Below the pieces are notes generated by a model that worked only from the letters and a program-made list of their open reading frames with translations, was not told where the DNA came from and did not search any database. Below, one piece after another: positions 18,667 to 33,235 of a stretch of 33,970 bases of DNA (its first letter is position 1; each line of letters starts with the position of its first letter). Source of the DNA: a virus. The translations under genes were made by a program, and so were the position numbers. The stretch lies in UHGV virus genome UHGV-0040082; one strand, written 5' to 3'.

Positions 18667-19097
18667 TATCGCCCCCAGCGTTTTATAAATTCCTCGTTTA
18701 ACTTCGTATCGCCAGACCACTGAACACCATGTTCCGCGCCGAACGAGTAGATCAGTTCGATTAATTCGCTAAATTCTGCTTTACTCATCCGGCTGGTTGA
18801 CGTACCCAGCACAACAAAACCTGATTTATCCAGGTTAGGGACAACGCCATATTTCTTAAGCCCGGCAGTAAATACCGCTTTCCAGTCTTCCGACGACAGC
18901 TTTTTGCCGTACCAATTAACCTGATCGCTAACGTCTGTCAGCAGCGCCCAAAGCAACGCGTTTTGACTCAGCGAGCGGGTTTTCTCCTTGATGGTAATTA
19001 CCAGCGGGCTTTTGCTATCAGGCTGGATCTCCTTTATCTGTCTGATAGCGTTTTCTTTTACGGCGTCGTTAACTATTTCAAACCTTATTTGCCGCAT
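18666..19097 (-). CDS. ninB: NinB / Orf-family recombination protein
   Basis: 143 aa; matches recalled lambda NinB along its length (ERNRSLDQN..LWA.L.DVS.QV.W.G; VVPNL...GFVV.G.STSRM...EF.EL.ELI..FG.E.GV.WS). Confidence 0.8.
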   Translation of the reverse strand: MRQIRFEIVNDAVKENAIRQIKEIQPDSKSPLVITIKEKTRSLSQNALLWALLTDVSDQVNWYGKKLSSEDWKAVFTAGLKKYGVVPNLDKSGFVVLGTSTSRMSKAEFSELIELIYSFGAEHGVQWSGDTKLNEEFIKRWGR

Positions 19098-19106
19098 AAT
19101 ATCAAC

Positions 19107-19667
19107 TCAAAACAATTGCAATTGAAAACGTTCGCTGACTTCTTTCATTAACTGCTTAACATGTTTCTTATCACGCTTTCGCTGAGTTAACAGGCGGCTT
19201 CCAACCTTGCCGACCGTTTCGCTATCAGTAGCAAAACTGCTTACTGCATTCATTACCTGTTCACAGCTTGCGCCGCAACAAATAAGACCCTTAACGTGTT
19301 CAGCCATGTCATCATGTGTTTTAGGTTTTTCTCCGTAATAGCCATTATGACGAATAGATGGCAATACTTCCTCAAACACCCAATCCTGGAAGCGTTCGGC
19401 TGATTCAAGTTTTGAATGCATAATCAAGCGGAAAACATCCGGTTCGTAAATCAGGCCAACTCCTTTCGGCTTGAATCCGAATCCTAATTCTCGCGTTTTG
19501 CGAGAATCAAGTTTAATCAATGATTTACAGTGTTTTTTAATAGCATCATGCTCGTTCTTATAACCTAACGCGCGAGCAACATTAACAGCAACAAAAGCTG
19601 GCTTATCTGCATAAATAACCGTTTGCACTTGTTTATCATCAAACGAGAATTTAACAACCTTATTCAT
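19107..19667 (-). CDS. Bro-N domain protein (antirepressor-like)
   Basis: N-terminal Bro-N-like segment (AVARALGY..EHDAIKKHCKSLIKLDS ... SKLESAERFQDWVFEEVLPSIR); paralog of the ORF at 23783-24520. Confidence 0.7.
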   Translation of the reverse strand: MNKVVKFSFDDKQVQTVIYADKPAFVAVNVARALGYKNEHDAIKKHCKSLIKLDSRKTRELGFGFKPKGVGLIYEPDVFRLIMHSKLESAERFQDWVFEEVLPSIRHNGYYGEKPKTHDDMAEHVKGLICCGASCEQVMNAVSSFATDSETVGKVGSRLLTQRKRDKKHVKQLMKEVSERFQLQLF

Positions 19668-19857
19668 GTTTTACCCCTTTATAACTTTCGTTTCGCGCCT
19701 TCATAATCATTTGAAGGCTGATTAATTTAGAAGAAGTCATAAAAGCGCTTTTTAAGTACCTCATATCAACAACAACAGGATTATCAGGATCGCCGCCGCG
19801 CATGTATTCCGCAATTGTGCTTAAGTCTTCAACTGTCAATTCCAATTCACTGTTCAT
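19660..19857 (-). CDS. Hypothetical small protein (65 aa)
   Basis: Start placed at the internal ATG (MNSELEL) preceded by AAGGGGG. Confidence 0.3.
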   Translation of the reverse strand: MNSELELTVEDLSTIAEYMRGGDPDNPVVVDMRYLKSAFMTSSKLISLQMIMKARNESYKGVKHE

Positions 19858-19867
19858 GATCGCCCCC

Positions 19868-20074
19868 TTACACAATCCGCATTGTGTTTCGTAATTCTCC
19901 GCGCAACGCCCGTAATGCATCGCGCATCGGCACGAAAACCCGGTTAAATTTTACGTGTTTATATTTCCGCATTAGTGGCGGCGTATACACCATTGCGTCG
20001 TATACTTCCCACGGATAATAAACACGCGTATCGTCAACAAACGTTTCAACTGAATAAAAAATTACACGCCTCAT
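19868..20074 (-). CDS. Hypothetical small protein (68 aa)
   Basis: ORF with plausible RBS; no domain recognised. Confidence 0.3.
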   Translation of the reverse strand: MRRVIFYSVETFVDDTRVYYPWEVYDAMVYTPPLMRKYKHVKFNRVFVPMRDALRALRGELRNTMRIV

Positions 20075-20088
20075 AGTTCCAACCCCGT

Positions 20089-20598
20089 TTAACCGTTAAG
20101 TTTTTCAATCTCAAATACTGGTTTATCAGGCAGTAGGCCGTTATCTTTACGGTATTCGTTTAATAAGTTACTAAAATTAAATGCGACAACATTTGAATAA
20201 CCATAAAAACGCGCGTTTCTGAAAAAATATTTACCGTCAAACTTATTAACAGTTAGTAGGTTCTCACTTCCTAACATCCGCAATATTCTGCCGACCTTTC
20301 CTTTGTTTATATTAATATTCAATTCATTCTTAACATCTTCCGCTGAAAAATACCCGCTACTATTTGAAAACAAAGGGATTATATCCCTTATCGCCATTTC
20401 CCTTACTGACTTCAAGCAATATGATAATCTTTTACTATTTAGATCTACTTTTATAATAACGCCATCAGAAACCAAAGCATCCAAAGCGCAAATTATTTCA
20501 CCTTCCGGTCCAGGAATAGATTTAACTATCGTTCCCTCACCTGAAATAACAGCGTCATTTAAAAAATCAATTATTTGTTGCTGGTATGAAGTTTTCAT
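20089..20598 (-). CDS. Hypothetical protein in a strongly AT-rich island (about 169 aa)
   Basis: Start at MKTSYQQ with GAGG RBS; a sampled 60-nt stretch is ~25% GC versus ~50% in the neighbouring helicase gene. Confidence 0.5.
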   Translation of the reverse strand: MKTSYQQQIIDFLNDAVISGEGTIVKSIPGPEGEIICALDALVSDGVIIKVDLNSKRLSYCLKSVREMAIRDIIPLFSNSSGYFSAEDVKNELNININKGKVGRILRMLGSENLLTVNKFDGKYFFRNARFYGYSNVVAFNFSNLLNEYRKDNGLLPDKPVFEIEKLNG

Positions 20599-20674
20599 TT
20601 TTAGCCTCGTTTTAAACGCGAAAACAGCCACCAGAAAGCGGTAAACTTTCCGGCAAGCTGTTTGCTAATATTGA

Positions 20675-22090
20675 TTAAAAAGATGCGTTATTCTGATTGT
20701 TTCGTTGGTTAAATCGGCTTGCGCGATGATTCATAGACTGAATACATGCAGACGCTGCGCGGGCCTGGTCACAAGGGAGGATATTGCCGTTGTCATCAAA
20801 CCGCTGGTAAACAGTACCAGTTTTCCCGTGACGGTTTTTAGATACAATTATTTCCATGTATTCGCGTGCTACAGACTGCTCATCGTAATAACCATCGCGG
20901 TAAACCATGATGATCCTGTCAGCGTCTTGCTCAAGGTTCCCTGAATCTCGAAGATCTGAATTATTAGGGCGCTTGTTAGGTCGTTCCTCAACGCGGCGGG
21001 ATAACTGGGCCAGCGCCAACACTGGTACGCGCAATTCTTTCGCCATCATCTTCAACGACCATGACAATTGCCCTACAGCGAGATCGTGACGTTCGGCTTT
21101 AGCCAGCTTCATTAAACCGATGTAGTCAATCATTACCATGCCCAGGTTTGGGTGATCCTGCTTCATGCGTTCCGTTGTTGCGCGTATTTCCTCAACCGTT
21201 AACTGCGACGCGTCAACGATCCACACCTCAAGATTAGCAAGTGCGCTCATACCCTGGCCGACATGCGCCCAACCCTCATCATCAAGTTTTACCGGATTGC
21301 GCAGGCAGTCAGTTGATAAATTACCAGCGCCAGCAATGGCCCGTTCAGTCATCTGATCGAGTGACATTTCAAGCGTAAACAGCAAAACGCCTACCCGCTG
21401 ACCTTCGCCACCAGGGTAAGGGCGCTCGGCAGCCTCGCGAGCAATTGCAAGCGCCAACGCAGATTTACCAGACCCAGGACGTCCGGCGAGAAGTACCAAA
21501 TCAGTAGCGTTAATTCCGCCTAACATTTCGTCGAGTGGTTCTATACCTGTTTTGATGTTGTCAGAATTGACACCGCATTCCATGCGCTTGCTTAAAACGT
21601 CCGTATACTCCTGTACCGCATCACGCAACAGAACCGGAATGATCTTGTCTTTCGTTACCTTTAATTTTGAATACCGGGAATCAAAATCTTTCATCGTCTC
21701 TTTGACGACTTCAAGCGTCCCCGTTTCCAGCTTGTAGCGCATATCGTCGATGAGTTCCAACATCTGCCGCCGCTGGTGCTCTTCACGTAGTAGCTGTGCG
21801 TATCCCTTCAGGTTGGCAGCAGAAGGACACGATCGCGCCGTTTGCATTAGCGGTACAAAGTTTTCATTGCCAATCTCATCGCCAACTAATAACGCGTCGA
21901 TAAGATTCCTGTTTCTGGCTTGCGCCCGGATAACTTCAAACGCACGTTTATAAAGCGGGATCGTGAACACTTCAGGATCAAGTGTGGCGAGAACATCTTG
22001 CGCGTTAGGAGTAAGGCCACCTAACAGTAGCCCGCCGATAACTGACGCTTCACGTTCCTGCCGTAGTGAGTTTATTTGCTCAGTTACCAT
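20675..22090 (-). CDS. DnaB-family replicative DNA helicase
   Basis: 471 aa; N-terminal DnaB-like domain, Walker A GRPGSGKS, C-terminal RecA-like fold motifs. Confidence 0.85.
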   Translation of the reverse strand: MVTEQINSLRQEREASVIGGLLLGGLTPNAQDVLATLDPEVFTIPLYKRAFEVIRAQARNRNLIDALLVGDEIGNENFVPLMQTARSCPSAANLKGYAQLLREEHQRRQMLELIDDMRYKLETGTLEVVKETMKDFDSRYSKLKVTKDKIIPVLLRDAVQEYTDVLSKRMECGVNSDNIKTGIEPLDEMLGGINATDLVLLAGRPGSGKSALALAIAREAAERPYPGGEGQRVGVLLFTLEMSLDQMTERAIAGAGNLSTDCLRNPVKLDDEGWAHVGQGMSALANLEVWIVDASQLTVEEIRATTERMKQDHPNLGMVMIDYIGLMKLAKAERHDLAVGQLSWSLKMMAKELRVPVLALAQLSRRVEERPNKRPNNSDLRDSGNLEQDADRIIMVYRDGYYDEQSVAREYMEIIVSKNRHGKTGTVYQRFDDNGNILPCDQARAASACIQSMNHRASRFNQRNNQNNASF

Positions 22091-22124
22091 TATGTTATTG
22101 CCTCCGGTTTACAAAATGGAAAAT

Positions 22125-22631
22125 TCAGGGTAAAGAAATACCGTGATTGCTATGAAAGTTATACATTCTTTCAGCTTCTTTTCTTGCTTTTACGGCATCA
22201 TCAAATGAGTCACCGTAATAAACGTATATTGTTTTCTTTTTCCCATCAGACCCCCTTATACCTATTTGCGCGCGCCATTTATTAGTTTTCTTGTTCCATG
22301 TAACGCCAACGCATCCGCTGGTGTTACTTGATGGTATTGTTTTATTTCTGTTGTTCTCCCTCCTTGTAACCATCCTTAAGTTTTCGATTCTATCATCGCC
22401 AGGCACATGATTTATGTGATCTATTTCCATTCCATCAGGGATAGGGCCGTTAAACATTTCCCAAATAATGCGGTGACGCCATGTACAACACACACCATTA
22501 ACGCGGATAGTCCAATATCCGCTATGATGCCTACTTCCAGCAACGTCACCGGCTTTTGTTTTGTTATTTGCGCGGTTACAAGACCAATATAGAACACCGT
22601 CCCTATAGGTAAATAAATCATCCCACATCAT
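22125..22631 (-). CDS. HNH homing endonuclease with AP2-like domain (second copy)
   Basis: EIDHINHVPGDDRIENLR motif followed by GCVGVTW...W.A.I motif; start overlaps the stop of the upstream gene; paralog of the ORF at 3976-4500. Confidence 0.75.
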   Translation of the reverse strand: MMWDDLFTYRDGVLYWSCNRANNKTKAGDVAGSRHHSGYWTIRVNGVCCTWRHRIIWEMFNGPIPDGMEIDHINHVPGDDRIENLRMVTRRENNRNKTIPSSNTSGCVGVTWNKKTNKWRAQIGIRGSDGKKKTIYVYYGDSFDDAVKARKEAERMYNFHSNHGISLP

Positions 22632-23748
22632 GACACACCACCATTTCAGGCCTATATACAAAGCGACCAATTTCGCCATAATCAGGACTGTAAATGATAA
22701 CCGCCGCGCAACGTTGCGATCTCCATCCTCCATTAGTTGAATAAGCGTCTTTGCCCGCTAACGTGCCGTGGTGTTCAACTATGCCTATAGATGATTCTGT
22801 TACTGATTTATGGTGCAAATGTCCGACATGGACGTAAACATATTTCGACTTGCCGAAATCCTCGCGCCAGTCAGCTACGCAAGCAGCCAATAAATTTTCC
22901 GGCTTTTTAATAGTGTGCCCGTGGTGGTAAGCAAGAAATGTTTTACCGTACTGCGTGTGGTGGACGATAGCAGGTGACACATCAACCGTCACGCGCGGTT
23001 CATCTTCGTAAAAAGCCGCCAGCGCCGCACGTAGCCAAATCATGCCTGACTGATCGTGATTGCCTGACAACACCTGGATTTCAACATCCTTATGATTTAA
23101 CAACATTTTACCTACCGCCCGCCGGACAGACCGGATCGCCACATAAACAAGTTTTGCGTAGCGACTATCTTGATCAAGAATGTGCCCGCTTATTGGCGTC
23201 ACCGGGACCATACCGTCAGAATGAAGCAGATCGCCACCGAGGAGCAGTACGGCTTTTTCAGACATCGGAGCAGCGCCAACAGCGTAGTCAAAGAAGTCAT
23301 TCAACACGCGCTCAGCGATCCCAGTGTCGTAGCTCTCGCCGCATTCAGCTTTATGAGCAAGCGCCCCGATATGCAGATCAAACACCGGATAAAGGGCCAG
23401 GCTTTTTTGAAAATCAATTTCAGGCACTGGCACAGCCTCCGCGCGTGGTATTTCATCCGTGAAAGCGTCGCGGGCCGCTTCCATTAACTGTTCCATTTCG
23501 TCGCGGTCACGGGCTGTTTTAATCCAGCGCATGATCACATTGCCATCCTTATCGACGAGCAATGACTCAGCATTGACGCCAAAACCCGGTGCGCGACGCG
23601 TGGATATTAAACCGCGTTTCGCCAGTTTTGCGCCTAGCCGCTCGACGTTGCGTTTTGACATGCCATATTTTTCAGCGATCTGCTTGTACGTTAAACCGTT
23701 GTTATATTCAGCGATCAATTGCTCATCGCTGATTTTTCTTTGTGACAT
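22618..23748 (-). CDS. HTH domain fused to calcineurin-like metallophosphoesterase
   Basis: N-terminal HTH (LTYKQIAEKYGMSKRNVERL); then phosphoesterase motifs in order: DLHIG, GGDLLHSDG, GNHD, YHHGH, GHLHH. Confidence 0.7.
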   Translation of the reverse strand: MSQRKISDEQLIAEYNNGLTYKQIAEKYGMSKRNVERLGAKLAKRGLISTRRAPGFGVNAESLLVDKDGNVIMRWIKTARDRDEMEQLMEAARDAFTDEIPRAEAVPVPEIDFQKSLALYPVFDLHIGALAHKAECGESYDTGIAERVLNDFFDYAVGAAPMSEKAVLLLGGDLLHSDGMVPVTPISGHILDQDSRYAKLVYVAIRSVRRAVGKMLLNHKDVEIQVLSGNHDQSGMIWLRAALAAFYEDEPRVTVDVSPAIVHHTQYGKTFLAYHHGHTIKKPENLLAACVADWREDFGKSKYVYVHVGHLHHKSVTESSIGIVEHHGTLAGKDAYSTNGGWRSQRCAAVIIYSPDYGEIGRFVYRPEMVVCHDVG

Positions 23749-23782
23749 AGTGTCATTTCCTCACGAATAACAAATTGTATAC

Positions 23783-24520
23783 TTAGTTGCAAGTTAAAAG
23801 CTCAGTGATCCATACTTGTCCTTTAGCAGTGAATACAGCCTGCTCATATCCATCGTGAGTTACCCTCATTTCACCGTAGCCCTCATCAATAAACCACTGA
23901 CTGAATACACGGCGGCGACAGCGAAGATCATAAACACCAACCGCCGAAAGTTTTCTGTTTAATTTTACGGCTGACATTCCCAGCGGTTTAGCTACCTCTG
24001 AAGCCGTTCGGTGCATATCGTTTTTGACTATCGCGTCACATACAGCCGCTTTCGGAGCCAGCACTTTATTTTCAAGCGCAAGACGTTCATTTTCTTGCTT
24101 AACTAACAATTTTTGCTCGTATTCATTAGCCCACGCCCGCGCCGCTTCCGCAGGGTTAGAGAAGTCAGGCAAAGCAGGTTTGCAACCGTAACACCCATTT
24201 TCACGCAAAGCCGGAAGAACCTCCTCGCACACCCAATCCTGGAAGCGCTCGGCTGATTCTAATTTTGATCTCATAACAAGACGGTATATATCTGCCTCTC
24301 GAATTATAATTATGCCTTTTGGTCTGAACCCAAAACCTAATTCCGTTGTTTTAACGGAATCAAGTTTAATCAATGACTTACAATGTTTTTTAATGGCCTG
24401 ATGCTCGTCGTTGTACCCCAGCGCACGGGCCACATCAACCGCAACAAAAGCAGGTTTACCGTCATAAATTACAGCAGTGATTTTATTGTCATCAAAATTA
24501 AAACACATCAACTCAGACAT
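23783..24520 (-). CDS. Bro-N / KilA-C-type antirepressor-like protein
   Basis: Start at MSELM with GGAGA RBS; N-terminal Bro-N segment near-identical in places to the ORF at 19107-19667; longer C-terminal domain. Confidence 0.7.
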   Translation of the reverse strand: MSELMCFNFDDNKITAVIYDGKPAFVAVDVARALGYNDEHQAIKKHCKSLIKLDSVKTTELGFGFRPKGIIIIREADIYRLVMRSKLESAERFQDWVCEEVLPALRENGCYGCKPALPDFSNPAEAARAWANEYEQKLLVKQENERLALENKVLAPKAAVCDAIVKNDMHRTASEVAKPLGMSAVKLNRKLSAVGVYDLRCRRRVFSQWFIDEGYGEMRVTHDGYEQAVFTAKGQVWITELLTCN

Positions 24521-24652
24521 TGTAATTTCTCCGTAAAACGCTCTACAACGCAAAAATCCCACCGCGTAACCCGTTTGCACAGGTTGCAGTGTCTTATTGC
24601 GCCAGAGGCGCTATCAGGTGGCTAATTTTCGATTTACAGACTGGTATGTAGG

Positions 24653-24754
24653 TTATGGATTGATTAGCAGGTACAAACCGCCGAACAAAGCGACGTTAAC
24701 AGCGATTGCAGCAGCGATGGCAAAGGCCAGGGCGAAAACGTGTTTACCGTCCAT
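24653..24754 (-). CDS. Possible 33-aa hydrophobic peptide
   Basis: MDGKHVFALAFAIAAAIAVNVALFGGLYLLINP; RBS GAGAGGA; shares a 17-nt leader (CGTTTTAGAGAGGATTT) with the upstream AntA-like gene. Confidence 0.3.
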   Translation of the reverse strand: MDGKHVFALAFAIAAAIAVNVALFGGLYLLINP

Positions 24755-24768
24755 TTTTTAAATCCTCT

Positions 24769-25407
24769 CTAAAACGAATTATTAGAAACGAATTTTCTGT
24801 ATGGCTTAGGTAACGAAGGAGTGTTGCCGCCAAATAACAACCTTATCGCATTAACAGAAAACTCAACATACATAAACGGTTCACCATCAGCATGATAGCC
24901 AACCTGTTGGCGAGCAAGCCCGCGAAGCGCCATAGACGGCGTAACAATCCAGCCATTATCAACCTTTTGAACCATGCCCAGCTTTGCAGCAGCCTTATAA
25001 ACTTCACCAGACTTTCCAGGCAAGATTTTCCCTGGAGTAAGGAATACACCCTCAAGCATGTTGATCAGGCAATCATTTTCCTTGCGTAACTGCGCTGCCT
25101 CTTTCTCTCTTTCGATGAAGTAGTCACGAACCGCGCGCCCCTTAGGTGTGTGCTGGATCATCGCAATGTGTTTTGCTGCCTCAACAGTCAGAAAATATTC
25201 AGATGCTGGGCGGCCTCCATCCAGGTTATGAACATTTTTGTTCAAAACCTCAAAATCCAAAGACTTACGCAACCCGCACGCCTTTATCTGACGCTTTATC
25301 CACATGTGATAAGGAGTTTTAACACCCATTGCCTCATGTAACTGGCGACCGTCAACAGCCTCGCGCGTAACGCCGTCCATATCCTTAACAACAATATCGA
25401 ACTTCAT
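24769..25407 (-). CDS. AntA-domain antirepressor-like protein
   Basis: 212 aa; N-terminal region resembles the AntA/AntB family; RBS GAGAGGA. Confidence 0.5.
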   Translation of the reverse strand: MKFDIVVKDMDGVTREAVDGRQLHEAMGVKTPYHMWIKRQIKACGLRKSLDFEVLNKNVHNLDGGRPASEYFLTVEAAKHIAMIQHTPKGRAVRDYFIEREKEAAQLRKENDCLINMLEGVFLTPGKILPGKSGEVYKAAAKLGMVQKVDNGWIVTPSMALRGLARQQVGYHADGEPFMYVEFSVNAIRLLFGGNTPSLPKPYRKFVSNNSF

Positions 25408-25540
25408 TTCAAAATCCTCTCTAAAACGCTCTCTAACGAGCTAAACCGCTAAAGATATGCAATCGTAGCACCATGCGTGTTTTAGCTCGCTGGTGAGCTT
25501 GTTTTGTGGGTAATTTTTGATTTTTGCTGATCGTGGTTGG

Positions 25541-26587
25541 TCAAAGAGCGCCACATCGTGTATCACGTAGCGTTTTTGGTTTAAGTAGAAAATCCAGTGT
25601 CGCAGTAAAGCCATTGCCGAAGTAAAAATCTGAAGCCGTGTTTTTGAACGTTTCAAAGTAGGCGACAAAGCCGTTGATGCTTTTGTCTTTCAGGTAGTCA
25701 GTGAACGCATAAATCTTGCGTTCAAGATCCCTATCCAGTTCGGCAGGTGGCAACAGGCCATCAAACGTGCTGTTAAATGCCTCCACTACGTCGGCAGCGT
25801 TTGCAGTGGCTGACAGTTTGCGCCATTTTTCAGCATCAGCCAGATACCCATCAAATTTAGTTACCCGGCAAATGTTTATAGGCTTAGGTGTTCCACCACG
25901 GCTACGCCATTGCGTTAAAGCCCACTCAATCACTAATGTGATCTCATCCTCCGTATACGCTTTACGTGTTTTTGTTTCTGTCAGTAGTTCGATGAATGGC
26001 TTCGCATCACGACATTTGCATCCTGCCTTGTCGTTGTAGAAGGCCAGGCAACGCAACGCCGCTTCGTTTACGCCATCATGATTGACATGTTTTTCTTCTG
26101 GGGGGATATAAGGGGGTATATTTTTAATGTTCTCTTTACTGGTTATATATGACTGGTTAGGGTGACTCTGTGTCACTACCCCCGGTGACTCTGTGTCACT
26201 ACCCTGGTGACTCTGTGTCACTACCCCCGGTGACTCTGTGTCACTACCCTGGTGACTCTGTGTCACTACCCCCGGTGTCACAGTGACACTACCATGCAAT
26301 GACGGAAGGACTATTACATAGAAATTACTAGTTTGCTCTTTTCCTCCGATTAAGTATCTTGGTTGTTTAATCAACAACCCTTTTTCACAAAGTGAGTCTA
26401 CAGCCCTCATAGCTGTTCTTTTGCTGATCTCACACTCCTTTGCTATGTGATGGTAAGAAGGGTAACACTCGCCGTTATCATTAGCGTTATCAGCTAACTT
26501 CAACAGCACTAGTTTGTGCATTGGGTCGCCGACCTCAGTATGGAAGACCTCTACCATTAGCCGCATACTCATAAGCATTAACCTCAT
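25541..26587 (-). CDS. Replication initiator (lambda O-like) containing the origin iterons
   Basis: N-terminal winged-helix/HTH segment, internal peptide repeats GVVTQSHQGSDTESP x3 encoded by DNA iterons, gene sits upstream of the DnaB helicase. Exact start uncertain. Confidence 0.65.
   Translation of the reverse strand: MRLMLMSMRLMVEVFHTEVGDPMHKLVLLKLADNANDNGECYPSYHHIAKECEISKRTAMRAVDSLCEKGLLIKQPRYLIGGKEQTSNFYVIVLPSLHGSVTVTPGVVTQSHQGSDTESPGVVTQSHQGSDTESPGVVTQSHPNQSYITSKENIKNIPPYIPPEEKHVNHDGVNEAALRCLAFYNDKAGCKCRDAKPFIELLTETKTRKAYTEDEITLVIEWALTQWRSRGGTPKPINICRVTKFDGYLADAEKWRKLSATANAADVVEAFNSTFDGLLPPAELDRDLERKIYAFTDYLKDKSINGFVAYFETFKNTASDFYFGNGFTATLDFLLKPKTLRDTRCGAL
26161..26293. repeat. Origin-like iteron array: five 22/23-bp direct repeats plus one palindromic variant
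   Basis: ggtgactctgtgtcactaccc(cc/t) repeated five times (26161-26273), then ggtgtcacagtgacactacc; each unit has internal dyad symmetry GTGAC..GTCAC; AT-rich tract at 26100-26160 on the downstream side. Confidence 0.7.
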
Positions 26588-26593
26588 GACGAA

Positions 26594-26839
26594 CTAAAAC
26601 ATTAACTGATAAACACAGAAGAAACCTGGTAGCTGGCTGATTAGGCCGCTTCTTTTCAGTTGATGAAGTGCAGAGATAGTATCGCGTAACGGAATTTCGC
26701 ACATTTCAGCGATTTCTTCCGGCGTTACTTCGCTTTTGCCGTTGCATCCGGCCTTTGTTGCCAGTGCAATTAAGATGAGTTTTTGCGCCGGATCATTGTT
26801 ATTCAGGCGAATATCAAAAGCCTTGCGCACGTAATACAT
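26594..26839 (-). CDS. Small HTH protein at the Cro position
   Basis: 81 aa; first gene of the minus operon, divergent from the repressor; RBS GGAGA; its HTH resembles the N-terminal HTH of the adjacent O-like protein rather than a classical Cro. Confidence 0.5.
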   Translation of the reverse strand: MYYVRKAFDIRLNNNDPAQKLILIALATKAGCNGKSEVTPEEIAEMCEIPLRDTISALHQLKRSGLISQLPGFFCVYQLMF

Positions 26840-27143
26840 ATTCTATCTCCTATGATTAGAGTGAACGCGCGGGCGGGCATCCCATTAGCATTAGATAGCA
26901 GTGACTGACCGCTCAACAGATCCCGCCGTTGCGTGATATTTGTTTTTCGCTTCGCAGCGACACCGGATTTTTAAAGAGCTTAAGGCGTCGGCCTTTTTGT
27001 GCTTTCCCTTATCTTTTTCCTTGCATCATTGCAAGTATGGCTTTACCTTGTCAGCAAGTTTACAGAATGGCGCTAACGGGTCAAGACTTAAAAAACACGT
27101 TTTGTGACTTGCATCAAAATTTTTTAGGTTATAGGGTAGCGAC
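26840..27143. promoter_or_regulatory. Divergent control region between Cro-position gene and repressor gene
   Basis: 304-bp intergenic region between divergent starts; repeated element CTTGCATCA at 27019-27027 and 27109-27117, the first within inverted repeat TTGCA-N4-TGCAA; weak TTGCAT/TATAGG promoter-like pair just before the repressor ATG. Confidence 0.45.
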
Positions 27144-27647
27144 ATGAAAACAAAATGGTATGACTTAGCAAAACAACTCATGCGGGCGCAGGGCATGAGC
27201 CAGGATTCATTGGCTGATCTTATGGGGATAACCAAAGGCGGCCTTTCTCACTGGCTGAACGGTCGCCGTGAGCCGAATCTTGAAGATATTGCGCGTATCA
27301 TGCGGGCGCTTGGGCGTCGGCAATTCACTGTTACTCATGACGGAATGGTCATTGATGATTCTGTTTCTAACACGTTGCTGGGAGCGCCACCGCGTGATTT
27401 AGGCAGTTATCCGGTTGTTGACTGGAAGGATGTAGCAAACAATATGGAAGGCACACACCGATCAACATTGCCACACGTTGCTACTAGCGTTATTTGTTCG
27501 GATGATAGTTATTGGCTGGTTGCTAAAGGTGAATCAATGAACGCACCGCAGGGGTTAAGCATCCCGGCGGGGACTATGATACTCGTTGACCCGCACGCGC
27601 CAGCTATTGACGGAAAACTTGTTATAGCACAACTGGAGGAAGGGTAG
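27144..27647 (+). CDS. CI-like repressor (HTH plus S24 peptidase domain), ended prematurely by in-frame TAG
   Basis: N-terminal HTH (MSQDSLADLMGITKGGLSHWLNGRREP), S24 Ser motif GESM; TAG at 27645-27647 comes before the expected catalytic Lys segment. Confidence 0.75.
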   Translation: MKTKWYDLAKQLMRAQGMSQDSLADLMGITKGGLSHWLNGRREPNLEDIARIMRALGRRQFTVTHDGMVIDDSVSNTLLGAPPRDLGSYPVVDWKDVANNMEGTHRSTLPHVATSVICSDDSYWLVAKGESMNAPQGLSIPAGTMILVDPHAPAIDGKLVIAQLEEG

Positions 27648-27791
27648 ATACCTACGTTTAAGCAGTTGATTATTGATGGAGGCCGAAAACTTTTGCGTTC
27701 GCTTAATCCGCTGTATCCGCCAATCCCTATGAATCCAGAATCAAAAATATTGGGCGTGGTGGTTGATGCGAAGATCGTAAACCTGCCATAA
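27648..27791 (+). other. In-frame continuation of the repressor reading frame after the TAG
   Basis: Same frame translates to IPTFKQLIIDGGRKLLRSLNPLYPPIPMNPESKILGVVVDAKIVNLP, resembling the C-terminus of lambda CI (..FTFKKLI..LQPLNPQYP.I.....VVGKV..), ending at TAA 27789-27791. Confidence 0.7.
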
Positions 27792-27797
27792 ACATTA

Positions 27798-27818
27798 GCC
27801 GCCGGATGGCGGCTTTTC
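27798..27818 (+). terminator. Rho-independent terminator after the repressor frame
   Basis: Hairpin gccgcc-ggat-ggcggc followed by ttttctt. Confidence 0.65.
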
Positions 27819-27915
27819 TTCGCCCAAAAAAACACCAAAACGTAAACAGAAAACGCTATTTATTGTTTAGATATCAATAGCATATAAAATATTTTAAAAA
27901 AGTATACAAAATGGA

Positions 27916-27944
27916 TTGACTCGGTGTTTTACGGGGCGTATATT
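27916..27944 (+). promoter_or_regulatory. Near-consensus sigma70-type promoter (pL-like) for the plus-strand early operon
   Basis: TTGACT (27916-27921), 17-nt spacer, TATATT (27939-27944). Confidence 0.6.
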
Positions 27945-28198
27945 GCGAATCAAAGGAAGGGCGTAGGTAACAAAAGCAGCTTCCTGGCACTTTAAAAATC
28001 AGGCTTAACACCTTGTCAACCGTGGAGTAACTCCCCGATGGGGGACCGAAAGCGGCACTGATAACAAGGCGCATGGGGTGTTTAAAGCGTTACATCCCCC
28101 ACGAAACCGCACGCAAGGCGACGAGTCAGCTTGCTTGGAGTGAGCAAGGTCACACCGGAAACGGCGATGATTGCGGGATTAGTTGAAAGATGTTAAGC

Positions 28199-28236
28199 CG
28201 CTCATTAAAAATCTGGTCAGCCGCTGGAAGTGCGGC
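28199..28236 (+). promoter_or_regulatory. Candidate nut-like site (boxA-like plus boxB-like hairpin)
   Basis: CGCTCATTA (28199-28207; compare lambdoid boxA CGCTCTTA), then hairpin GCCGC-tggaagt-GCGGC at 28220-28236, about 55 nt upstream of the N-like gene. Confidence 0.4.
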
Positions 28237-28292
28237 AATTAACGAAGATGATTTTTTATTAAGTTTCATCAAGGATATACGGAGATCAGATT

Positions 28293-28583
28293 ATGAGCGT
28301 TACAATTATGTATGGAAAATGTGATAGCAAAATGAACGCCAGGGAACGCAGAAGGATAAAAAGAGAAAACGAAAGAAAATCATCACCTGCAATTAATAAA
28401 ACAGACAATGTGGATAAAGCTATTCGATTTGCAAACGAGGAAAGGTGCAAACCAAATAGCATTAAAGAACGTCGCAAAGGATCAGTAAAATGGTATACGG
28501 AAAATGAAAGCGGCAGCTACTACCACGCAACGCAACCACGCCATTTAGGGGAGAAACCCCTGGATAAAGTCCGTTACCATTAA
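28293..28583 (+). CDS. N-like antiterminator candidate (arginine-rich motif protein)
   Basis: 96 aa; N-terminal arginine-rich segment NARERRRIKRENERK; first gene downstream of the pL-like promoter and nut-like site; RBS GGAG. Confidence 0.45.
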   Translation: MSVTIMYGKCDSKMNARERRRIKRENERKSSPAINKTDNVDKAIRFANEERCKPNSIKERRKGSVKWYTENESGSYYHATQPRHLGEKPLDKVRYH

Positions 28584-28732
28584 TACAAAATGTAAACATT
28601 CGGAGGTGACATTATGGTTATTCAGGCGCTTCAATTCAAACTGGCAGTAGCGGAAATGCTTCACGATGCCGAAATGTGGAGCGCCGCGAATAAAGCCTTA
28701 TACATAGTGTTAACAGCGAAGGAGATTAAAGA

Positions 28733-29374
28733 GTGAAAACAGAGTTACACAAAAAGCTGTGGACGATTCAGCAAACACTGAACGCTCCAAAGGGGCAATA
28801 CAATAAGTTCGGTGGATATTCATACCGATCAGCGGAGGATATTTTAGAGGCTGTAAAACCACTACTTCAAAATGTCACGTTGATGGTTAGTGATGAAATT
28901 GTCCTGATTGGTGATCGCTATTATGTGAAAGCTACGGCAACACTAAGCGACGGTGAGGATTCAATTTCAGCAACTGCATTTGCAAGGGAAGAAAAAGAGC
29001 AAAAAGGGATGACGGCTGGGCAGCTAACTGGCGCGACATCAAGTTACGCGCGGAAATATGCCCTGAACGGCCTGTTCTGTATAGACGATGCGAAAGATTT
29101 AGATACTGACGCTTACGCTAAGCAGACTGGCCAGCAGCCTCGCCAGCAGAAAAACCCACCAAAACAACAACCACAGCAGCAGAAAGCGCCGCCAAATCCT
29201 GATGAGGTGTTAGCGCGTTTCTGTGATGCGGCAGCGAAAGCGCAGGACGCTAACAAGTTACGCGAGATCTTCGGGAAGTGCTGGAAACTACTTCCTAAAG
29301 ATTCAGAGCAGCAACAGAAAGCCAAAGACGTTTATGATATTCGCTTAAAAGAGATTAACGGGGAGATCGGTTAA
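28733..29374 (+). CDS. erf: ERF-family single-strand annealing protein
   Basis: GTG start with AAGGAG RBS; N-terminal two-thirds resemble recalled P22 Erf (LNAPK.QYN.FG.Y.YRS.EDILE.VKPLL, IVLIGDRYYVKATAT, GATSSYARKY.LNGLF.IDDAKD); Gln/Pro-rich linker. Confidence 0.8.
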   Translation: MKTELHKKLWTIQQTLNAPKGQYNKFGGYSYRSAEDILEAVKPLLQNVTLMVSDEIVLIGDRYYVKATATLSDGEDSISATAFAREEKEQKGMTAGQLTGATSSYARKYALNGLFCIDDAKDLDTDAYAKQTGQQPRQQKNPPKQQPQQQKAPPNPDEVLARFCDAAAKAQDANKLREIFGKCWKLLPKDSEQQQKAKDVYDIRLKEINGEIG

Positions 29375-29778
29375 TGAGCTTAAATTTAATCACACTTGGC
29401 GGTAATATCGGAAATGATATGGAAATTCATTACACGCAAAACGGTAAAGCTATTGGTAGCTTTCCGTTAGCTGTAACGAATGGCTACGGTGATAATAAAC
29501 GGACAATGTGGATCACTTGCCTGGTATTTGGCGAGCGTGCGGAAAAATTAGCGCCACATATCCGTAAGGGTGGAAAAATAGTGGTAAGCGGTCGCCTGGA
29601 TGTTCGGCAATATGACCGGAACGACGGCACGAAGGGAACTGCGGTAGAAGTGGCGGTCAATGAGTTTGAGTTCATGGCTGTTAACCAGCAAGGCCAGCAG
29701 CAGAAAGCGCCGCCGCAGCAGCAGAATAATAACGGGAATAATGTTCCTCCTGACTTCGATGACGACATCCCGTTTTAA
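29374..29778 (+). CDS. ssb: Single-stranded DNA-binding protein
   Basis: OB-fold-like N-terminal region, Gln/Gly/Asn-rich linker, acidic C-terminal tail DFDDDIPF as in E. coli SSB. Confidence 0.85.
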   Translation: MSLNLITLGGNIGNDMEIHYTQNGKAIGSFPLAVTNGYGDNKRTMWITCLVFGERAEKLAPHIRKGGKIVVSGRLDVRQYDRNDGTKGTAVEVAVNEFEFMAVNQQGQQQKAPPQQQNNNGNNVPPDFDDDIPF

Positions 29779-29793
29779 ATCAATAGGTTAGCG

Positions 29794-30072
29794 ATGGTTG
29801 ATTATTTAAAAACGCCACCGCCACCGCGAACAAAAGAGCAAGTATTAAAAGAAGCCCGTGATCAAATCGATCGCGGGCTTTTTTTATGCGGCACGGCAGC
29901 GGAACGGATGGCAAAAAGATTTAGTGACCTGTACGCAAAACAAATATGGTTCGACAACTGGCAGGCAAGTTTTTACCCACTGCAAAGAAAACCGGATATG
30001 CACTGGCCTGAATATGTCGATCCACGTATGCGCAAATATCGCGGGCGTATGGGCCAGGTCATTAACGATTAA
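29794..30072 (+). CDS. Hypothetical protein (92 aa)
   Basis: ORF in early-left operon; no domain recognised. Confidence 0.4.
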   Translation: MVDYLKTPPPPRTKEQVLKEARDQIDRGLFLCGTAAERMAKRFSDLYAKQIWFDNWQASFYPLQRKPDMHWPEYVDPRMRKYRGRMGQVIND

Positions 30073-30311
30073 TGAGGTATCAAATCATGATCGAAGAAAA
30101 AGAAGTTGATAAAGAAGTGCCTGACACGGCTGATGACTTTGTTACTTTTGACGGCGGTCTGTATGAGTCCGATACGTCGGCTGGGTGGACGGATAAGTGG
30201 CCGCAATTAACAAAAGAGGAGCTTCTAAGCAGAAACAGTTTTGGTAGTGACAAAGAACGGCTGGCTAATAACAAATGGCTTGATAAGTTAATTGCGGAGG
30301 GTGGCAAATGA
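30072..30311 (+). CDS. Hypothetical acidic protein (79 aa)
   Basis: ORF overlapping neighbours by start/stop; no domain recognised. Confidence 0.4.
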   Translation: MRYQIMIEEKEVDKEVPDTADDFVTFDGGLYESDTSAGWTDKWPQLTKEELLSRNSFGSDKERLANNKWLDKLIAEGGK

Positions 30312-30421
30312 GCTTTGCAAAAATTGCCGCATTGCTTGCGGCTTTATCTATCGCCGTGCTGTATCTCAGCGTATCTCTTTATATCACGGTAGCGATCATT
30401 AAACTCATTACTAACATGTGA
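30308..30421 (+). CDS. Possible 37-aa hydrophobic membrane peptide
   Basis: MSFAKIAALLAALSIAVLYLSVSLYITVAIIKLITNM; ATG overlaps the upstream stop (ATGA). Confidence 0.3.
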   Translation: MSFAKIAALLAALSIAVLYLSVSLYITVAIIKLITNM

Positions 30422-30429
30422 GGCCAATC

Positions 30430-30549
30430 ATGAAAGTCGGTAAGGATATTGTGACTGTCGCGTTTTGCATTATTTGCTTCCCGTTTGTGGTTGTTTCTTG
30501 TGGCGCATTTGCTGTGCTGGTTAGCTTTATTTTCAGAGGATTGCTGTGA
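30430..30549 (+). CDS. Possible 39-aa hydrophobic membrane peptide
   Basis: MKVGKDIVTVAFCIICFPFVVVSCGAFAVLVSFIFRGLL; RBS GAGG 6 nt upstream; stop overlaps the next start. Confidence 0.3.
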   Translation: MKVGKDIVTVAFCIICFPFVVVSCGAFAVLVSFIFRGLL

Positions 30550-30821
30550 TGAAAATATGGGATGCAAAGGCTGGTGATCTTGTTGTGTTGCCTGAATATC
30601 GTGATGACCCTGGCCTGGTTGTACTGAATAAGATGTATGACGATCTAGAGCGCCCGCTAGTGGTTAAATACCTGGACGGAACAATCATCGAACCGCGCTA
30701 CTTTGATGATATTGAACTGAAGGCCCGCAATGTTCGCGTTAAGCCGTTCCGGGCTTATGCTGAAAACCACTGGCGGAAATTGTTCGCCGGACTGAATGGG
30801 ATGTTCGGTGTATGGCTATAA
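30546..30821 (+). CDS. Hypothetical protein (91 aa)
   Basis: ORF; no domain recognised. Confidence 0.4.
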   Translation: MMKIWDAKAGDLVVLPEYRDDPGLVVLNKMYDDLERPLVVKYLDGTIIEPRYFDDIELKARNVRVKPFRAYAENHWRKLFAGLNGMFGVWL

Positions 30822-31003
30822 AATTAGTGAAAGTTAAAGATTTAAAAGGCGGCGAAAAGATCCGCACGTGGTATGGGTATAAATTTATTATAGCTGCCTT
30901 TTCTTTTGGGCCTGGTGGTCAAGTAACATTATTTGATGAGGAAGATGATGAGGTGGGGCAATGGCATCTTGAACAATATGTTGAGGTGTTAAATGAAAAT
31001 TAA
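30812..31003 (+). CDS. Hypothetical protein (63 aa)
   Basis: ORF overlapping neighbours; no domain recognised. Confidence 0.35.
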   Translation: MAIKLVKVKDLKGGEKIRTWYGYKFIIAAFSFGPGGQVTLFDEEDDEVGQWHLEQYVEVLNEN

Positions 31004-31325
31004 ATTTCATAAAGCGTATGATTCAGTTACTAACAAGTTATCGCTATTTATTGAGTTCGAGCGCAGGATCGTTGTTGTTCCTTATTCGCGTCGCTTCAAT
31101 GATGCGGCAGGGCGGCGACAGTTCGCGTTAGACATGCTGTTGCGCGGTTGCGGCCTTATGCGCCCGCTATCTGATTTAAAACGGATGATGCCTGGATCGT
31201 TCGGTCAGATTGATGAAATTGAAATAAACCAGGAAGAGCTAAAACGGGCGCGTGATTTGTTCCTTTCAAGCGAAGGAAACCCGTTCAATCCAGAAACTGA
31301 AATGAAATGGCATCACCCACTATAA
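30993..31325 (+). CDS. Hypothetical protein (110 aa)
   Basis: ORF; no domain recognised. Confidence 0.4.
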   Translation: MKIKFHKAYDSVTNKLSLFIEFERRIVVVPYSRRFNDAAGRRQFALDMLLRGCGLMRPLSDLKRMMPGSFGQIDEIEINQEELKRARDLFLSSEGNPFNPETEMKWHHPL

Positions 31326-31338
31326 AAGGATAAATATC

Positions 31339-31959
31339 ATGAAAGACATCAAAACGGCTTATTCACTCGGCAGCGAAGGCATGTTAATCACTCGCTACAC
31401 TGAAGATGCAAGTTTTCATGAAGTAGAAATTAAAGATTATCACGAAGTATTAAAAGATATGGAAGCTGGCGCGTATGACGCTGATTTGAATCTGGCGCTA
31501 CAGGTTGTTGATATTGTGATGGGTGCGTCAATCCGCGATTACGTGTCTTTAAGTATGGAAGAAAAAACATCGGTAGCGCGTTATGTATTCTCTCTTACTT
31601 TTGTGAAGCGCATGGAGGAAGAATTCGGACGCGTACCAGTGCTGGAAGAGGTTGATCCGCTCGCGTTCGGAAGTGCTGTTATTTTCCCGTTGAACAAGGA
31701 TCAGTTTGGTAGTGTTTCACTGCATTCTATGCGCGGCCTGATGAAAAACATCTTTGAAGTTAAGATGTTGCAGAAATGCATTGAGGAAGGCCACAAAGAA
31801 GAAGAAGTAAAAGCGTTTATGCCGCTGTTTTACGGTGAAATGGTTGGCAATGATATGCGCGCAAATGATTTCGGTGTACAGGCGGCTATCGCTGTGCTTA
31901 ATGATGCACGGAAAAACGCACAGCCGATGCCTGAACAGGAAAAACGTGTACTGCATTAA
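31339..31959 (+). CDS. Hypothetical protein (206 aa)
   Basis: ORF with plausible RBS; no domain recognised. Confidence 0.45.
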   Translation: MKDIKTAYSLGSEGMLITRYTEDASFHEVEIKDYHEVLKDMEAGAYDADLNLALQVVDIVMGASIRDYVSLSMEEKTSVARYVFSLTFVKRMEEEFGRVPVLEEVDPLAFGSAVIFPLNKDQFGSVSLHSMRGLMKNIFEVKMLQKCIEEGHKEEEVKAFMPLFYGEMVGNDMRANDFGVQAAIAVLNDARKNAQPMPEQEKRVLH

Positions 31960-32057
31960 CCGAGTGATTCCGATTACATAAATATACATTATGTATTGTG
32001 ATCGCATATCCGTTTTGTAAGCCAAAATCAAAAGGTTTACGGTGCGGAGGAAGCAAA

Positions 32058-32276
32058 ATGGAACGCGAATTGATGCTTTATTGTGTTGAGGGTGGAGTAG
32101 GTCACGATGCCTACGTCGCCGGGAAAGGCTATCCAGCCGATGAAGTGCTTTCTAATATGCACTTCCGGGAAAATGAAAGCCGGGTGTCTGTGTGGAAACG
32201 GTGCATTGATGGTATTGAGGTTGTAAGCATCGAACGGTATTTAGGCACGTTTGATTACGGTGTTATTGAGGCTTAA
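32058..32276 (+). CDS. Hypothetical protein (about 72 aa)
   Basis: Start placed at the internal ATG (MEREL) preceded by GGAGG. Confidence 0.35.
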   Translation: MERELMLYCVEGGVGHDAYVAGKGYPADEVLSNMHFRENESRVSVWKRCIDGIEVVSIERYLGTFDYGVIEA

Positions 32277-32374
32277 TTATGGACGACACATTGTTTTATA
32301 TGTGCTGTTGCTGGGGTTTTATTGCCTTATGCCTGTTTATCAGGTGGTTTATTGAATACCATATGAGGTGATAT

Positions 32375-32566
32375 ATGAAAAAGGTTGGCGAATACATGAT
32401 ACCGGATAACGCTAAATTAGCCGGAATCGGTCAATTTGGTTGTTATTACTATAACTGTGTCGGTGATATTTATCAGGTTAGTATTGTTGGTGGTGTACAG
32501 CATTTTCGTCTTATGCACTTTGAATTAAGCGCACTTAAAAAGGCGGTGTTAATGTATGAAGTTTAA
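32375..32566 (+). CDS. Hypothetical protein (63 aa)
   Basis: ORF; no domain recognised. Confidence 0.35.
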   Translation: MKKVGEYMIPDNAKLAGIGQFGCYYYNCVGDIYQVSIVGGVQHFRLMHFELSALKKAVLMYEV

Positions 32567-32759
32567 ACAATATAAAGAATGGAAGATTCCAGAATCAGCA
32601 ACAAAGGCAGCGCCCGGAATATTTTCGGGCGTTTATTTTTATATGGAAGGTAAATGGTATTTCGGCAGCAGGCCGGATCACTATTATCAAGAAGTGTGCA
32701 AATCTCACACATGGGACATTAATGAGCGCGTGCAAGGCGGTGTAATAGACGAGGTTTAA
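32556..32759 (+). CDS. Hypothetical protein (67 aa)
   Basis: ORF; no domain recognised. Confidence 0.35.
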   Translation: MKFKQYKEWKIPESATKAAPGIFSGVYFYMEGKWYFGSRPDHYYQEVCKSHTWDINERVQGGVIDEV

Positions 32760-32760
32760 A

Positions 32761-32997
32761 ATGGTTAAGAGCTTTTTTAACTGGTTGGGGGCGTGGCTTT
32801 TGGCTACGCTTTTTGTTTTCCTGGCGGCCCTGACTGCTATCGGTGTTATCATGCTGGGGGCTATGTTTATTACGTGGTCGCTGCCTGAATTTAACGACAT
32901 TGGGAATATTCTTTTTGCAGCCCGCGCTTTATTGGCTGTTAGCGCATTCATTGGTTTTTGCTGGACTGTAGCGCCTGATTGGGGTGATGAATGGTGA
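32761..32997 (+). CDS. Small membrane protein (two predicted TM helices)
   Basis: 78 aa with two hydrophobic segments. Confidence 0.4.
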   Translation: MVKSFFNWLGAWLLATLFVFLAALTAIGVIMLGAMFITWSLPEFNDIGNILFAARALLAVSAFIGFCWTVAPDWGDEW

Positions 32998-33235
32998 TCC
33001 TATGGCTTTGTTCAATATGTCAGAACTGCAATTTAATGCCGTAAAAGCTGCCGCCCGCGCTGCGCTTTCTGCCTGCAAAGCGGAGGTAGAAAGAAACGGC
33101 TACAGCGATAAAGCTACGCGGCTGATATTAGAAAAGCATTATCGCAAGGTCGCCCCACTAATCAGTATTGAGCGTTTTATCTGGTTGGTGGGATATTTGA
33201 ACAACCGTTGGGGAACGGAACAGGACTATTTCTAG
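32984..33235 (+). CDS. Hypothetical protein (83 aa)
   Basis: ORF; no domain recognised. Confidence 0.35.
   Translation: MMNGDPMALFNMSELQFNAVKAAARAALSACKAEVERNGYSDKATRLILEKHYRKVAPLISIERFIWLVGYLNNRWGTEQDYF

Follow-up and report, generated by a model that had tools for sequence, protein, structure and literature searches.

The replication origin of bacteriophage lambda consists of four 18-bp iterons with dyad symmetry followed by a 39-bp region of high AT content, situated inside the initiator gene O (PMC6022878, PMC7466680), and the natural number of iterons varies, with four in lambda versus six in the Stx phages 933W and P27 (PMC7466680). An arrangement of the same kind was found in the UHGV virus genome UHGV-0040082, a stretch of 33,970 nucleotides that is referred to below, at its full length, as the window. 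Inside a minus-strand open reading frame (ORF) of this genome, which encodes a putative replication initiator, an array of six short dyad repeats adjoins an AT-rich core, and comparison with related loci makes it very probable that array and core together form the origin of vegetative replication in a temperate coliphage that belongs to the mEp021/mEpimmI group, laid out on the lambda plan. A probable origin and candidate initiator sites are thereby located for the mEpimmI coliphages. An origin inside an initiator gene is in itself an ordinary arrangement of a known kind; what is new here is a putative specificity code between initiator and iterons, a rule by which iteron number changes in steps of 45 bp, and a candidate sequence element, AACCAGT, that recurs across the family.

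The window and lambda share the position of the origin in the linker that joins a DNA-binding N-domain to a partner-binding C-domain, the presence of several dyad iterons of about 20 bp with an AT-rich tract on the promoter-distal side, an early operon that runs through the origin and diverges from cI, and an iteron number that varies (2, 4 or 6 in the window group). They differ in the N-domain, which is HTH_36 in the window and Phage_rep_O in lambda; in the iterons, which are unrelated to those of lambda (TCCCTCAAAACGAGGGA); and in the presumed partner, a phage DnaB-type helicase rather than a P-type loader. Unlike in lambda, the spacing in the window group is strictly 23/22 nt and copies change in 45-bp in-frame pairs, and the AACCAGT of the AT-rich tract is absent from the lambda origin. 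The likeness to the lambda ori-within-O arrangement that had been put forward in the original prediction therefore stands for the architecture and the linker position, but not for the protein family or the loader, and the label "O-like" is best taken as an analogy of architecture. With respect to the partner, P22 is presumably a closer match than lambda, having an O-like initiator (gene 18) together with a DnaB-type helicase (gene 12) in a lambdoid-style early operon; the window departs from P22 in that the helicase gene lies ~3.4 kb downstream, with antirepressor-like genes, a 376-amino-acid ORF and an HNH gene in between.

The Salmonella phage ST64B resembles the window in having a winged helix (HTH_36 at 44.5 bits in Sb42) and five dyad repeats of ~22 bp, followed by CCAG-AACCAGTCA-N8-AACCAGTCA-N3-AACCAGTCA. 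The HTH_36-type genes of ST64B (Sb42), mEp460, Stx2c and Vibrio phages, variously called "replication protein," "primosomal protein I" or "O-like," have N-domains homologous to that of the window, whereas the ST64B-type genes differ from it in iteron sequence, C-terminal domain and downstream partner. The Eru3 replication type of Stx phages (PMC8044961) may belong with this HTH_36 type; in the accessible portions of that study, which concerns non-lambda Eru replication regions, neither "iterons" nor "origin of replication" occurs, and no passage deals with a replication origin. The plasmids RK2 (TrfA) and F (RepE) also combine a winged-helix initiator and double-stranded iterons with an adjacent AT-rich unwinding element that contains short repeats, and the 13-mers of plasmid unwinding elements are essential and are bound strand-specifically as single-stranded DNA by Rep proteins (PMC4081077, PMC10602881). 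By analogy, these 13-mers are the best precedent for the AACCAGT repeats. The parallel is only mechanistic, in that iteron plasmids use a Rep_3-type protein, have the origin outside the initiator gene and show no sequence similarity to the window.

Iteron array, AT-rich core and initiator protein

Five exact 21-nt copies of GGTGACTCTGTGTCACTACCC were identified at 26161–26271, with starts at 26161, 26184, 26206, 26229 and 26251 and hence spacings of 23, 22, 23 and 22 nt, each containing the dyad GTGAC-N5-GTCAC. A sixth, variant copy, GGTGTCACAGTGACACTACC, lies at 26274–26293, +23 from the fifth regular copy; its arms are GTGTC/GACAC, and it includes a perfect 15-bp palindrome, GTGTCACAGTGACAC. 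All six copies fall inside the initiator ORF, where the array codes for PGVVTQSHQGSDTESPGVVTQSHQGSDTESPGVVTQSHP; read in the direction of the gene, it opens with the variant copy, and its last copy is followed by the AT-rich tract. The original prediction, which had described five direct repeats with an internal dyad, a palindromic variant beside them and a peptide repeat encoded within an initiator gene, was accurate on each of these points, and Tandem Repeats Finder recovered the array (period 45, 3.0 copies, 95% matches, score 238). No further copy was found at up to five mismatches in the whole window, and chance is therefore excluded as an explanation of the array. The elements of the locus are as follows; the iteron types are defined in the next section.

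26274–26293, minus strand: iteron 1, farthest from the AT-rich tract; variant copy, gene-sense GGTAGTGTCACTGTGACACC, with half-sites GTGTC/GACAC, i.e., the arms of type C
26251–26271, minus strand: iteron 2; exact copy, type A, gene-sense GGTAGTGACACAGAGTCACC
26229–26249, minus strand: iteron 3; exact copy, type A
26206–26226, minus strand: iteron 4; exact copy, type A
26184–26204, minus strand: iteron 5; exact copy, type A
26161–26181, minus strand: iteron 6, abutting the AT-rich tract; exact copy, type A
26152–26158, minus strand: AACCAGT copy 1 (plus strand ACTGGTT), starting 2 nt past the last iteron; read N-Q-S
26138–26144, minus strand: AACCAGT copy 2, following copy 1 at a distance of 14 nt, in another frame; read T-S
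26118–26160: AT-rich core, candidate DNA-unwinding element (25.6% GC, duplex stability, conservation)
25541–26587, minus strand: initiator gene, 348 amino acids (Pfam and PHROG matches, AlphaFold2 domain pattern)
26297–26587, minus strand: part of the initiator gene coding for the winged-helix N-domain, residues 1–97
26390–26425, minus strand: predicted recognition helix, codons 55–66 (SKRTAMRAVDSL), from covariation; R57 and S65 go specifically with iterons of type A
iterons plus AT-rich tract, minus strand: part of the initiator gene coding for the linker, residues ~95–170
25544–26080, minus strand: part of the initiator gene coding for the helical C-domain, residues 170–348

The peptide repeat is 15 amino acids long and the DNA repeat 22.5 nt; from the alternation of 23 and 22 nt it follows that a 21-nt unit is read in two frames, as GVVTQSH and as QGSDTESP. 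On these sequence grounds, the repeated unit is DNA and not peptide. A promoter scan identified no sigma-70-like promoter inside the origin, and in the intergenic region between cI and the early operon it identified two sigma-70-like sites, no more than shuffled controls give.

The AT-rich stretch that had been predicted at 26100–26160, downstream of the repeats in gene orientation, holds for its core rather than for its whole length. The whole stretch, at 36.1% GC against 45.6% for the window, lies at the 13th percentile of 61-nt windows and is unremarkable, whereas the 43-bp core at 26118–26160 has 25.6% GC (1.7th percentile) and is the least stable 40-step duplex of the gene, within the top 0.4% of the whole window. 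In gene sense the core reads CT-AACCAGT-CATATAT-AACCAGT-AAAGAGAAC. In a DNA alignment of 14 related loci the AT-rich tract is near-invariant, and the flanking coding DNA is rich in synonymous changes. A second tract, of 33–38% GC, lies on the opposite side of the array at 26280–26400. The promoter-distal end of the stretch (26100–26121), which opens with GGGGGGATATAAGGGGG, carries a pair of G-runs, GGGGGGATATAAGGGGGTATAT, that reads CCCCC..CCCCCC in gene sense and codes for IPPYIPP; paired C-runs, e.g., GATCCCCCTAACCCCCAAATGGGGG, also occur ~20–30 nt past the AACCAGT motifs of distant homologs, and in one mEpimmI variant a palindrome, CAATACACTTCGTGTATTG, stands in their place.

The gene had been predicted to encode an O-like initiator, and profile searches agree. 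In Pfam, residues 22–72 match HTH_36 (7e-15; 55 bits against a gathering cut-off of 25), with only weak MarR_2 and DnaD_N matches besides (E <= 0.01), and both halves of the protein match PHROG families of the "replication initiation O-like" or "replication initiation protein" kind (5e-33, 7e-37 and 8e-28), while no NCBIfam family matched. An AlphaFold2 model built on a 20-sequence alignment shows a winged helix at residues 8–94, a segment at residues 95–170 without secondary structure and with a predicted local distance difference test score (pLDDT) of 22–32, and a confident helical domain from residue 170 onward. Since residues 95–170 are unstructured in this model, the segment encoded by the origin would be an interdomain linker, as in lambda O (PMC6022878).

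Taken with the lambda precedent, this anatomy suggests how the locus might work. Dimers of the 348-amino-acid initiator would use their N-terminal winged helices to bind the six ~20-bp iterons, contacting half-sites of the form GTG-A-C and G-T-CAC that lie one helical turn apart, in iterons spaced by 22–23 bp, or about two turns. The resulting nucleoprotein complex would destabilize the adjoining 43-bp AT-rich core with its two AACCAGT motifs, and the C-terminal helical domain would recruit the phage's own DnaB-type helicase. Because such an origin is translated, it would encode the disordered interdomain linker, and iterons could be gained or lost only as in-frame pairs of 45 bp.

Iteron types and the recognition helix

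Over 17000–33970 the window is 90.8% identical to phage mEp010 across 81% of the length, and the initiator genes of the two are 94.5% identical; by sequence, the window belongs to the mEp021/mEpimmI group of temperate coliphages. Comparison of the iterons with those of related phages showed that the homologous initiator genes all carry repeats at the matching position. Three iteron types were distinguished (given in gene sense), which differ at the fourth base of each half-site, by one symmetric base pair per half-site.

Type A: GGTAGTG-A-CACAGAG-T-CACC, half-sites GTGAC..GTCAC; window, mEp010, mEp044, mEp013, E. coli 190 and two IMG/VR contigs; helix ISKRTAMRAVDSL
Type C: GGTAGTG-T-CAGAGAG-A-CACC, half-sites GTGTC..GACAC; mEp554, KKa019 and RM9245; helix I(S/G)KSTAMRA(V/I)DAL
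Type B: GGTAGTG-G-CA(G/C)A(G/A)AG-C-AACC, half-sites GTGGC..GCAAC; mEp021, N1286, E21845 and one IMG/VR contig; helix INKSTAMRAIEALCKK

The pairing of helix variant with iteron type was without exception in the 14 loci compared. The variant copy holds the first position in the array in all seven type A loci. Since the iterons are translated, the same pairing could be followed in proteins alone, for which 120 cluster representatives were drawn from ~1,169 homologs (with DNA for about 100). These comprised 57 of type A, 35 of type C and 27 of type B, among the last of which P0109 has a helix slightly off the B pattern, and one hybrid, P0101, in which S55/R57 occur in a B background and the repeats are B-like and A-like. 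The types are marked by one to four residue changes where the recognition helix begins: R57/S65 in A, S57/A65 in C, and N55/E64/K68/L73 in B. This covariation points to a specificity code in which base 4 of the half-site would be read by helix residues 55, 57, 64, 65 and 68, and it supports the proposal in the original prediction that the repeats are the likely initiator sites of an origin, in that repeat type follows the recognition helix in relatives. The natural A, B and C variants offer a compact system for studying the evolution of initiator specificity, with changes that can be swapped directly. The hybrid P0101, a single-member cluster with the helix ISKRTAMRAIEELCKK and the iteron-coded linker SGSGTKQPGVVAESHWGSDTKSLGVVTESH, may be a natural B/A recombinant, an evolutionary intermediate or a chimeric assembly.

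Copy number among the relatives varies solely in steps of 45 bp (15 codons), with two iterons in RM9245, four in most relatives and six in the window and N1286. In the 114 of the 120 representatives that could be parsed, the iteron-coded stretch is 15 amino acids long in 9, 30–31 in 101 and 45 in 4; the six iterons of the window are thus a rare state, which probably arose by a recent in-frame duplication. Such steps show how translation constrains an origin. In the prophage of E. coli strain 190 (L008, 1501–2435), the initiator is annotated as two coding sequences (a hypothetical and an HTH protein), split by what appears to be a frameshift just past the iteron region, which suggests that the prophage is defective or that the repeat was misassembled.

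The DNA alignment also indicates mosaicism around the origin. Over the initial ~85 nt of the alignment mEp554 resembles type A, and beyond that point it diverges, at synonymous and non-synonymous positions, through helix and iterons. Directly past the AT-rich tract, three alternative segments (IPPYIPPEEK...; NNTLRVLEKD...; LNKDIPPYIPL...) assort freely with iteron type. No mosaic breakpoint was found between helix and iterons in these loci; the breakpoints lie just upstream of the helix (mEp554) and downstream of the AT-rich tract. Helix, iterons and AT-rich tract thus travel as one module bounded by recombination breakpoints, as would be expected if separation of helix and iterons were lethal, and this pattern is supportive of the pairing but not decisive.

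The wider family and the AACCAGT element

When one genome per species and IMG/VR were scanned, 93 further loci were obtained whose N-domains are 44–58% identical to that of the window; ST64B, mEp460, Stx2c phages and many Vibrio phages carry such homologous N-domains (about 46–58% identity). Tandem Repeats Finder detected 58 distinct arrays of 21–24-bp dyad repeats in this wider family, in homologs of 45–58% identity that include ST64B, e.g., TAGTGCAGCAGATTCACC, TGGTGCAAATGCTGCACC and CCCTATGCCGCCAAAAAGCATAG, which begin ~260–310 nt past the start of the winged helix and have periods of 21, 22, 23 or 24 nt. Distant homologs retain only GTG-N9-CAC of the iteron, and the C-domains and downstream partners vary among distant loci (DnaC-like, DnaB-like or unknown).

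Past the last iteron, most of the distant homologs carry CCAG-AACCAGTCA-CTCTTTTG-AACCAGTCA-ATG-AACC... or a variant of it in which the spacing is 12 or 14 nt. The density of exact AACCAGT is 8.4 per kb in nt 300–500 of the distant genes versus 0.10 per kb elsewhere in the loci (L014–L106 and L108), an 83-fold enrichment, and at least two exact copies are present at nt 300–500 in 64 of 95 distinct loci; the window has two. The motif is read as R-T-S-H and E-P-V-N in one distant gene and as N-Q-S and T-S in the mEpimmI group, and because the frames differ, it is the DNA that is conserved. When IMG/VR was scanned in reverse for the pair AACCAGTCA-N3-8-AACCAGT, 123 occurrences were obtained: 85 lie in ORFs with this HTH_36-type N-domain, two more are frameshifted copies, three are cut at the end of the locus with iteron context, and two of the remaining pairs lie in linkers, one in a DUF1376 gene and one in a gene that is DnaD-like (DnaB_2). 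The motif recurs in HTH_36-type phage origins from E. coli, Salmonella, Citrobacter, Vibrio, Aliivibrio and Pseudomonas, and in Shewanella loci a related form, AACCTAT, is present.

It is tentatively proposed, with somewhat less than even confidence, that a sequence-specific element of the origin, (G)AACCAGT(CA), is present in the AT-rich tract in 2–4 copies spaced 12, 14 or 17 nt and starting 2–3 nt past the last iteron, and that this element stays constant across HTH_36-type origins while iterons, C-domains and helicase or loader partners diverge. By analogy, the motif could be a strand-specific single-stranded contact of the initiator ("loop-back," as in TrfA and RepE), a conserved host-factor site or a primer start. 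If functional, it would mean that phage origins of the HTH_36 type include an unwinding or loading element with sequence specificity, and it would also serve as a simple annotation marker for them. In a full-text literature search, AACCAGTCA and its complement matched nothing but unrelated primers and microRNA sequences, and no description of an AACCAGT origin element was found in the searchable literature. In the DnaD-like and DUF1376 genes, two unrelated initiator-like genes on IMG/VR contigs (L141, 4565–4620; L147, 765–810), AACCAGTCA repeats are read in all three frames within the linker-coding part; they may be those phages' own iterons or reflect a wider use of the word, and being ambiguous they are not taken as evidence for a host-factor site.

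A different cassette occupies the same position in mEp515, MagusPhagus and many E. coli prophages (including that of E. coli 127), which have only the C-terminal 53% of the gene in common with the window. In these, a Lin1244_N domain is fused to the same C-terminal half, and the linker position carries four TCATGACC-like words with an 11-bp period and AT-rich flanks. Examples are the words TCATGACC/TCTTGACC with flanking AT-rich DNA of the TTCTAATTCTAATT type in mEp515 (L006, 2626–2666), L013 (2617–2657) and L007. Neither iterons of the window type nor AACCAGT were found in the Lin1244_N-type loci. The N- and C-halves of the initiator thus recombine independently, and a different DNA-binding domain brings its own repeats.

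Competing explanations and gene neighborhood

Several observations weigh against reading the locus as an origin. Initiator binding, unwinding of the AT core, helicase recruitment and the start of replication at this site are steps that we infer. The AT core is modest, with twelve less stable places elsewhere in the window (e.g., near 20418 and 27866), and across the wider family low-GC tracts lie downstream of the arrays no more often than upstream (32/58). The initiator has no match to Phage_rep_O, the Pfam family of lambda O, at E <= 0.01. The AlphaFold2 model is poor overall (mean pLDDT 55.8), and a Foldseek search of the PDB with it gave nothing significant (best E = 0.18); the weak matches were generic winged-helix proteins, including staphylococcal plasmid initiators, and were not usable. 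A sequence search of solved structures with the initiator likewise gave noise only (E >= 0.44, haemagglutinins). Finally, helix and iterons are merely ~150–250 bp apart, and their covariation could in part reflect linkage rather than selection, an objection that the flanking breakpoints and the hybrid P0101 reduce but do not remove.

If the initiator bound the repeats mainly for autoregulation or copy control, by titration or handcuffing, replication would start elsewhere in the genome. Plasmid iterons have such secondary roles (PMC4980987), and the less stable AT tracts elsewhere in the window would provide other candidate sites; however, no second iteron cluster is present in the window, and the juxtaposition of last iteron, AACCAGT and AT core is kept across very divergent homologs, which argues for a functional unit and makes a copy-control role without an origin quite unlikely.

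The repeats might alternatively matter only as peptide, the array being an expandable low-complexity linker (GVVTQSH/QGSDTESP) selected for length or flexibility without any role as DNA sites. The region is indeed translated and predicted to be disordered, and linker length is polymorphic (15, 30 or 45 amino acids). The DNA period of 22/23 nt is, however, half the peptide period, with one DNA unit serving two frames; the periods of homologs are not multiples of three; and in both frames it is DNA words (GGTAGTG...ACC) that stay invariant. Moreover, the types differ by symmetric base changes in the half-sites that alter unrelated amino acids, and an unrelated N-domain comes with unrelated repeats at the same spot. 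A purely peptide-level role is accordingly very improbable.

Equally improbable is that the repeats are operator or titration sites through which a small paralog of the initiator or the cI-like repressor controls initiator expression. The paralog, an 81-amino-acid winged-helix protein encoded just upstream of the initiator gene, resembles initiator N-domains and sits in the position of Cro, and dyad-symmetric sites are typical of operators. It was rejected as the iteron binder for lack of covariation with iteron type: the identical protein was found with iterons of types A, B and C, and its gene is missing from KKa019 and one IMG/VR contig, in which the iterons are kept. The repressor, for its part, is ~96% conserved across the group according to the accessible portions of the genomic description (PMC11893012), while the iterons differ, and six sites in a coding region beside an AT core have the architecture of an origin rather than of an operator. 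An iteron-like word at the start of cI, AGGGTAGCGACA at 27133–27144 (11 of 12 bases matching), was considered as an extra iteron and set aside, since it does not change between loci of types A, B and C; a C-to-T variant of the 11-mer in two loci is likewise independent of iteron type, and the word is treated as chance or as ribosome-binding-site context.

That the dyads act as hairpins or cruciforms, for instance in an RNA that influences translation or at a hot spot of recombination, is scarcely credible. In favor of such a role, the base changes between types A and C compensate each other, so that the arms still pair, and copy number is unstable. The stems, however, are only 5 bp, the arms of type B pair imperfectly (GTGGC/GCAAC), GTG-N9-CAC is all that distant homologs retain, the repeat region has no Rfam match, and the folding of its single strand is no better than that of shuffled controls (z = -1.66; 11 of 200 shuffles fold as well or better).

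The gene order is consistent with the origin reading. The early operon that contains the initiator diverges from a cI-like repressor gene whose product has HTH_3 and S24 peptidase domains (Pfam), and downstream of the initiator on the same strand follow two antirepressor-like genes (AntA- and Bro/KilAC-like), the 376-amino-acid ORF, which has no Pfam match, the HNH gene and a DnaB-family helicase gene. No lambda P-like helicase loader was found among the downstream genes by Pfam and NCBIfam. The two neighboring genes of most relevance are as follows.

26594–26839, minus strand: 81-amino-acid stand-alone paralog of the initiator winged-helix N-domain, in the position of Cro (PHROG 4617, 1e-9)
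20675–22090, minus strand: phage DnaB-family replicative helicase, 471 amino acids, presumed partner of the initiator (Pfam DnaB_C 1e-75, DnaB 5e-12; NCBIfam TIGR00665 at 3e-96, under that model's cut-off)

The mEp515-type phages have an 84-amino-acid counterpart of the paralog (HTH_36, 8e-8), and residue 50 of the paralog is Pro in the window and Ser or Thr in relatives. The HNH_3/AP2 homing-endonuclease-like gene (22125–22733, minus strand), located between the 376-amino-acid ORF and the helicase gene, is annotated in mEp010 as well and is absent from some relatives. The cI-like repressor gene (27144–27791, plus strand) contains an in-frame amber TAG at 27645–27647, where mEp010 and mEp554 have CAG (Gln168); the frame beyond it is intact to the normal stop, and the product would be 167 rather than 215 amino acids long and lack the S24 end. 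This could be a clear-plaque or defective-repressor mutation, or a sequencing error.

The mEpimmI phages were as prevalent as lambdoid phages in the collection underlying their 2025 genomic description (PMC11893012), in the accessible portions of which the word "iteron" does not occur and no passage on origin, ori or replication concerns a replication origin. Outside the replication region, the window carries long, imperfect tandem repeats at 11812–12320 (period 108, 4.7 copies, 65% matches) and 11124–11227 (period 42, 2.5 copies); repeats of differing length in the tail J protein of mEpimmI phages are mentioned in the same portions of that description (PMC11893012).

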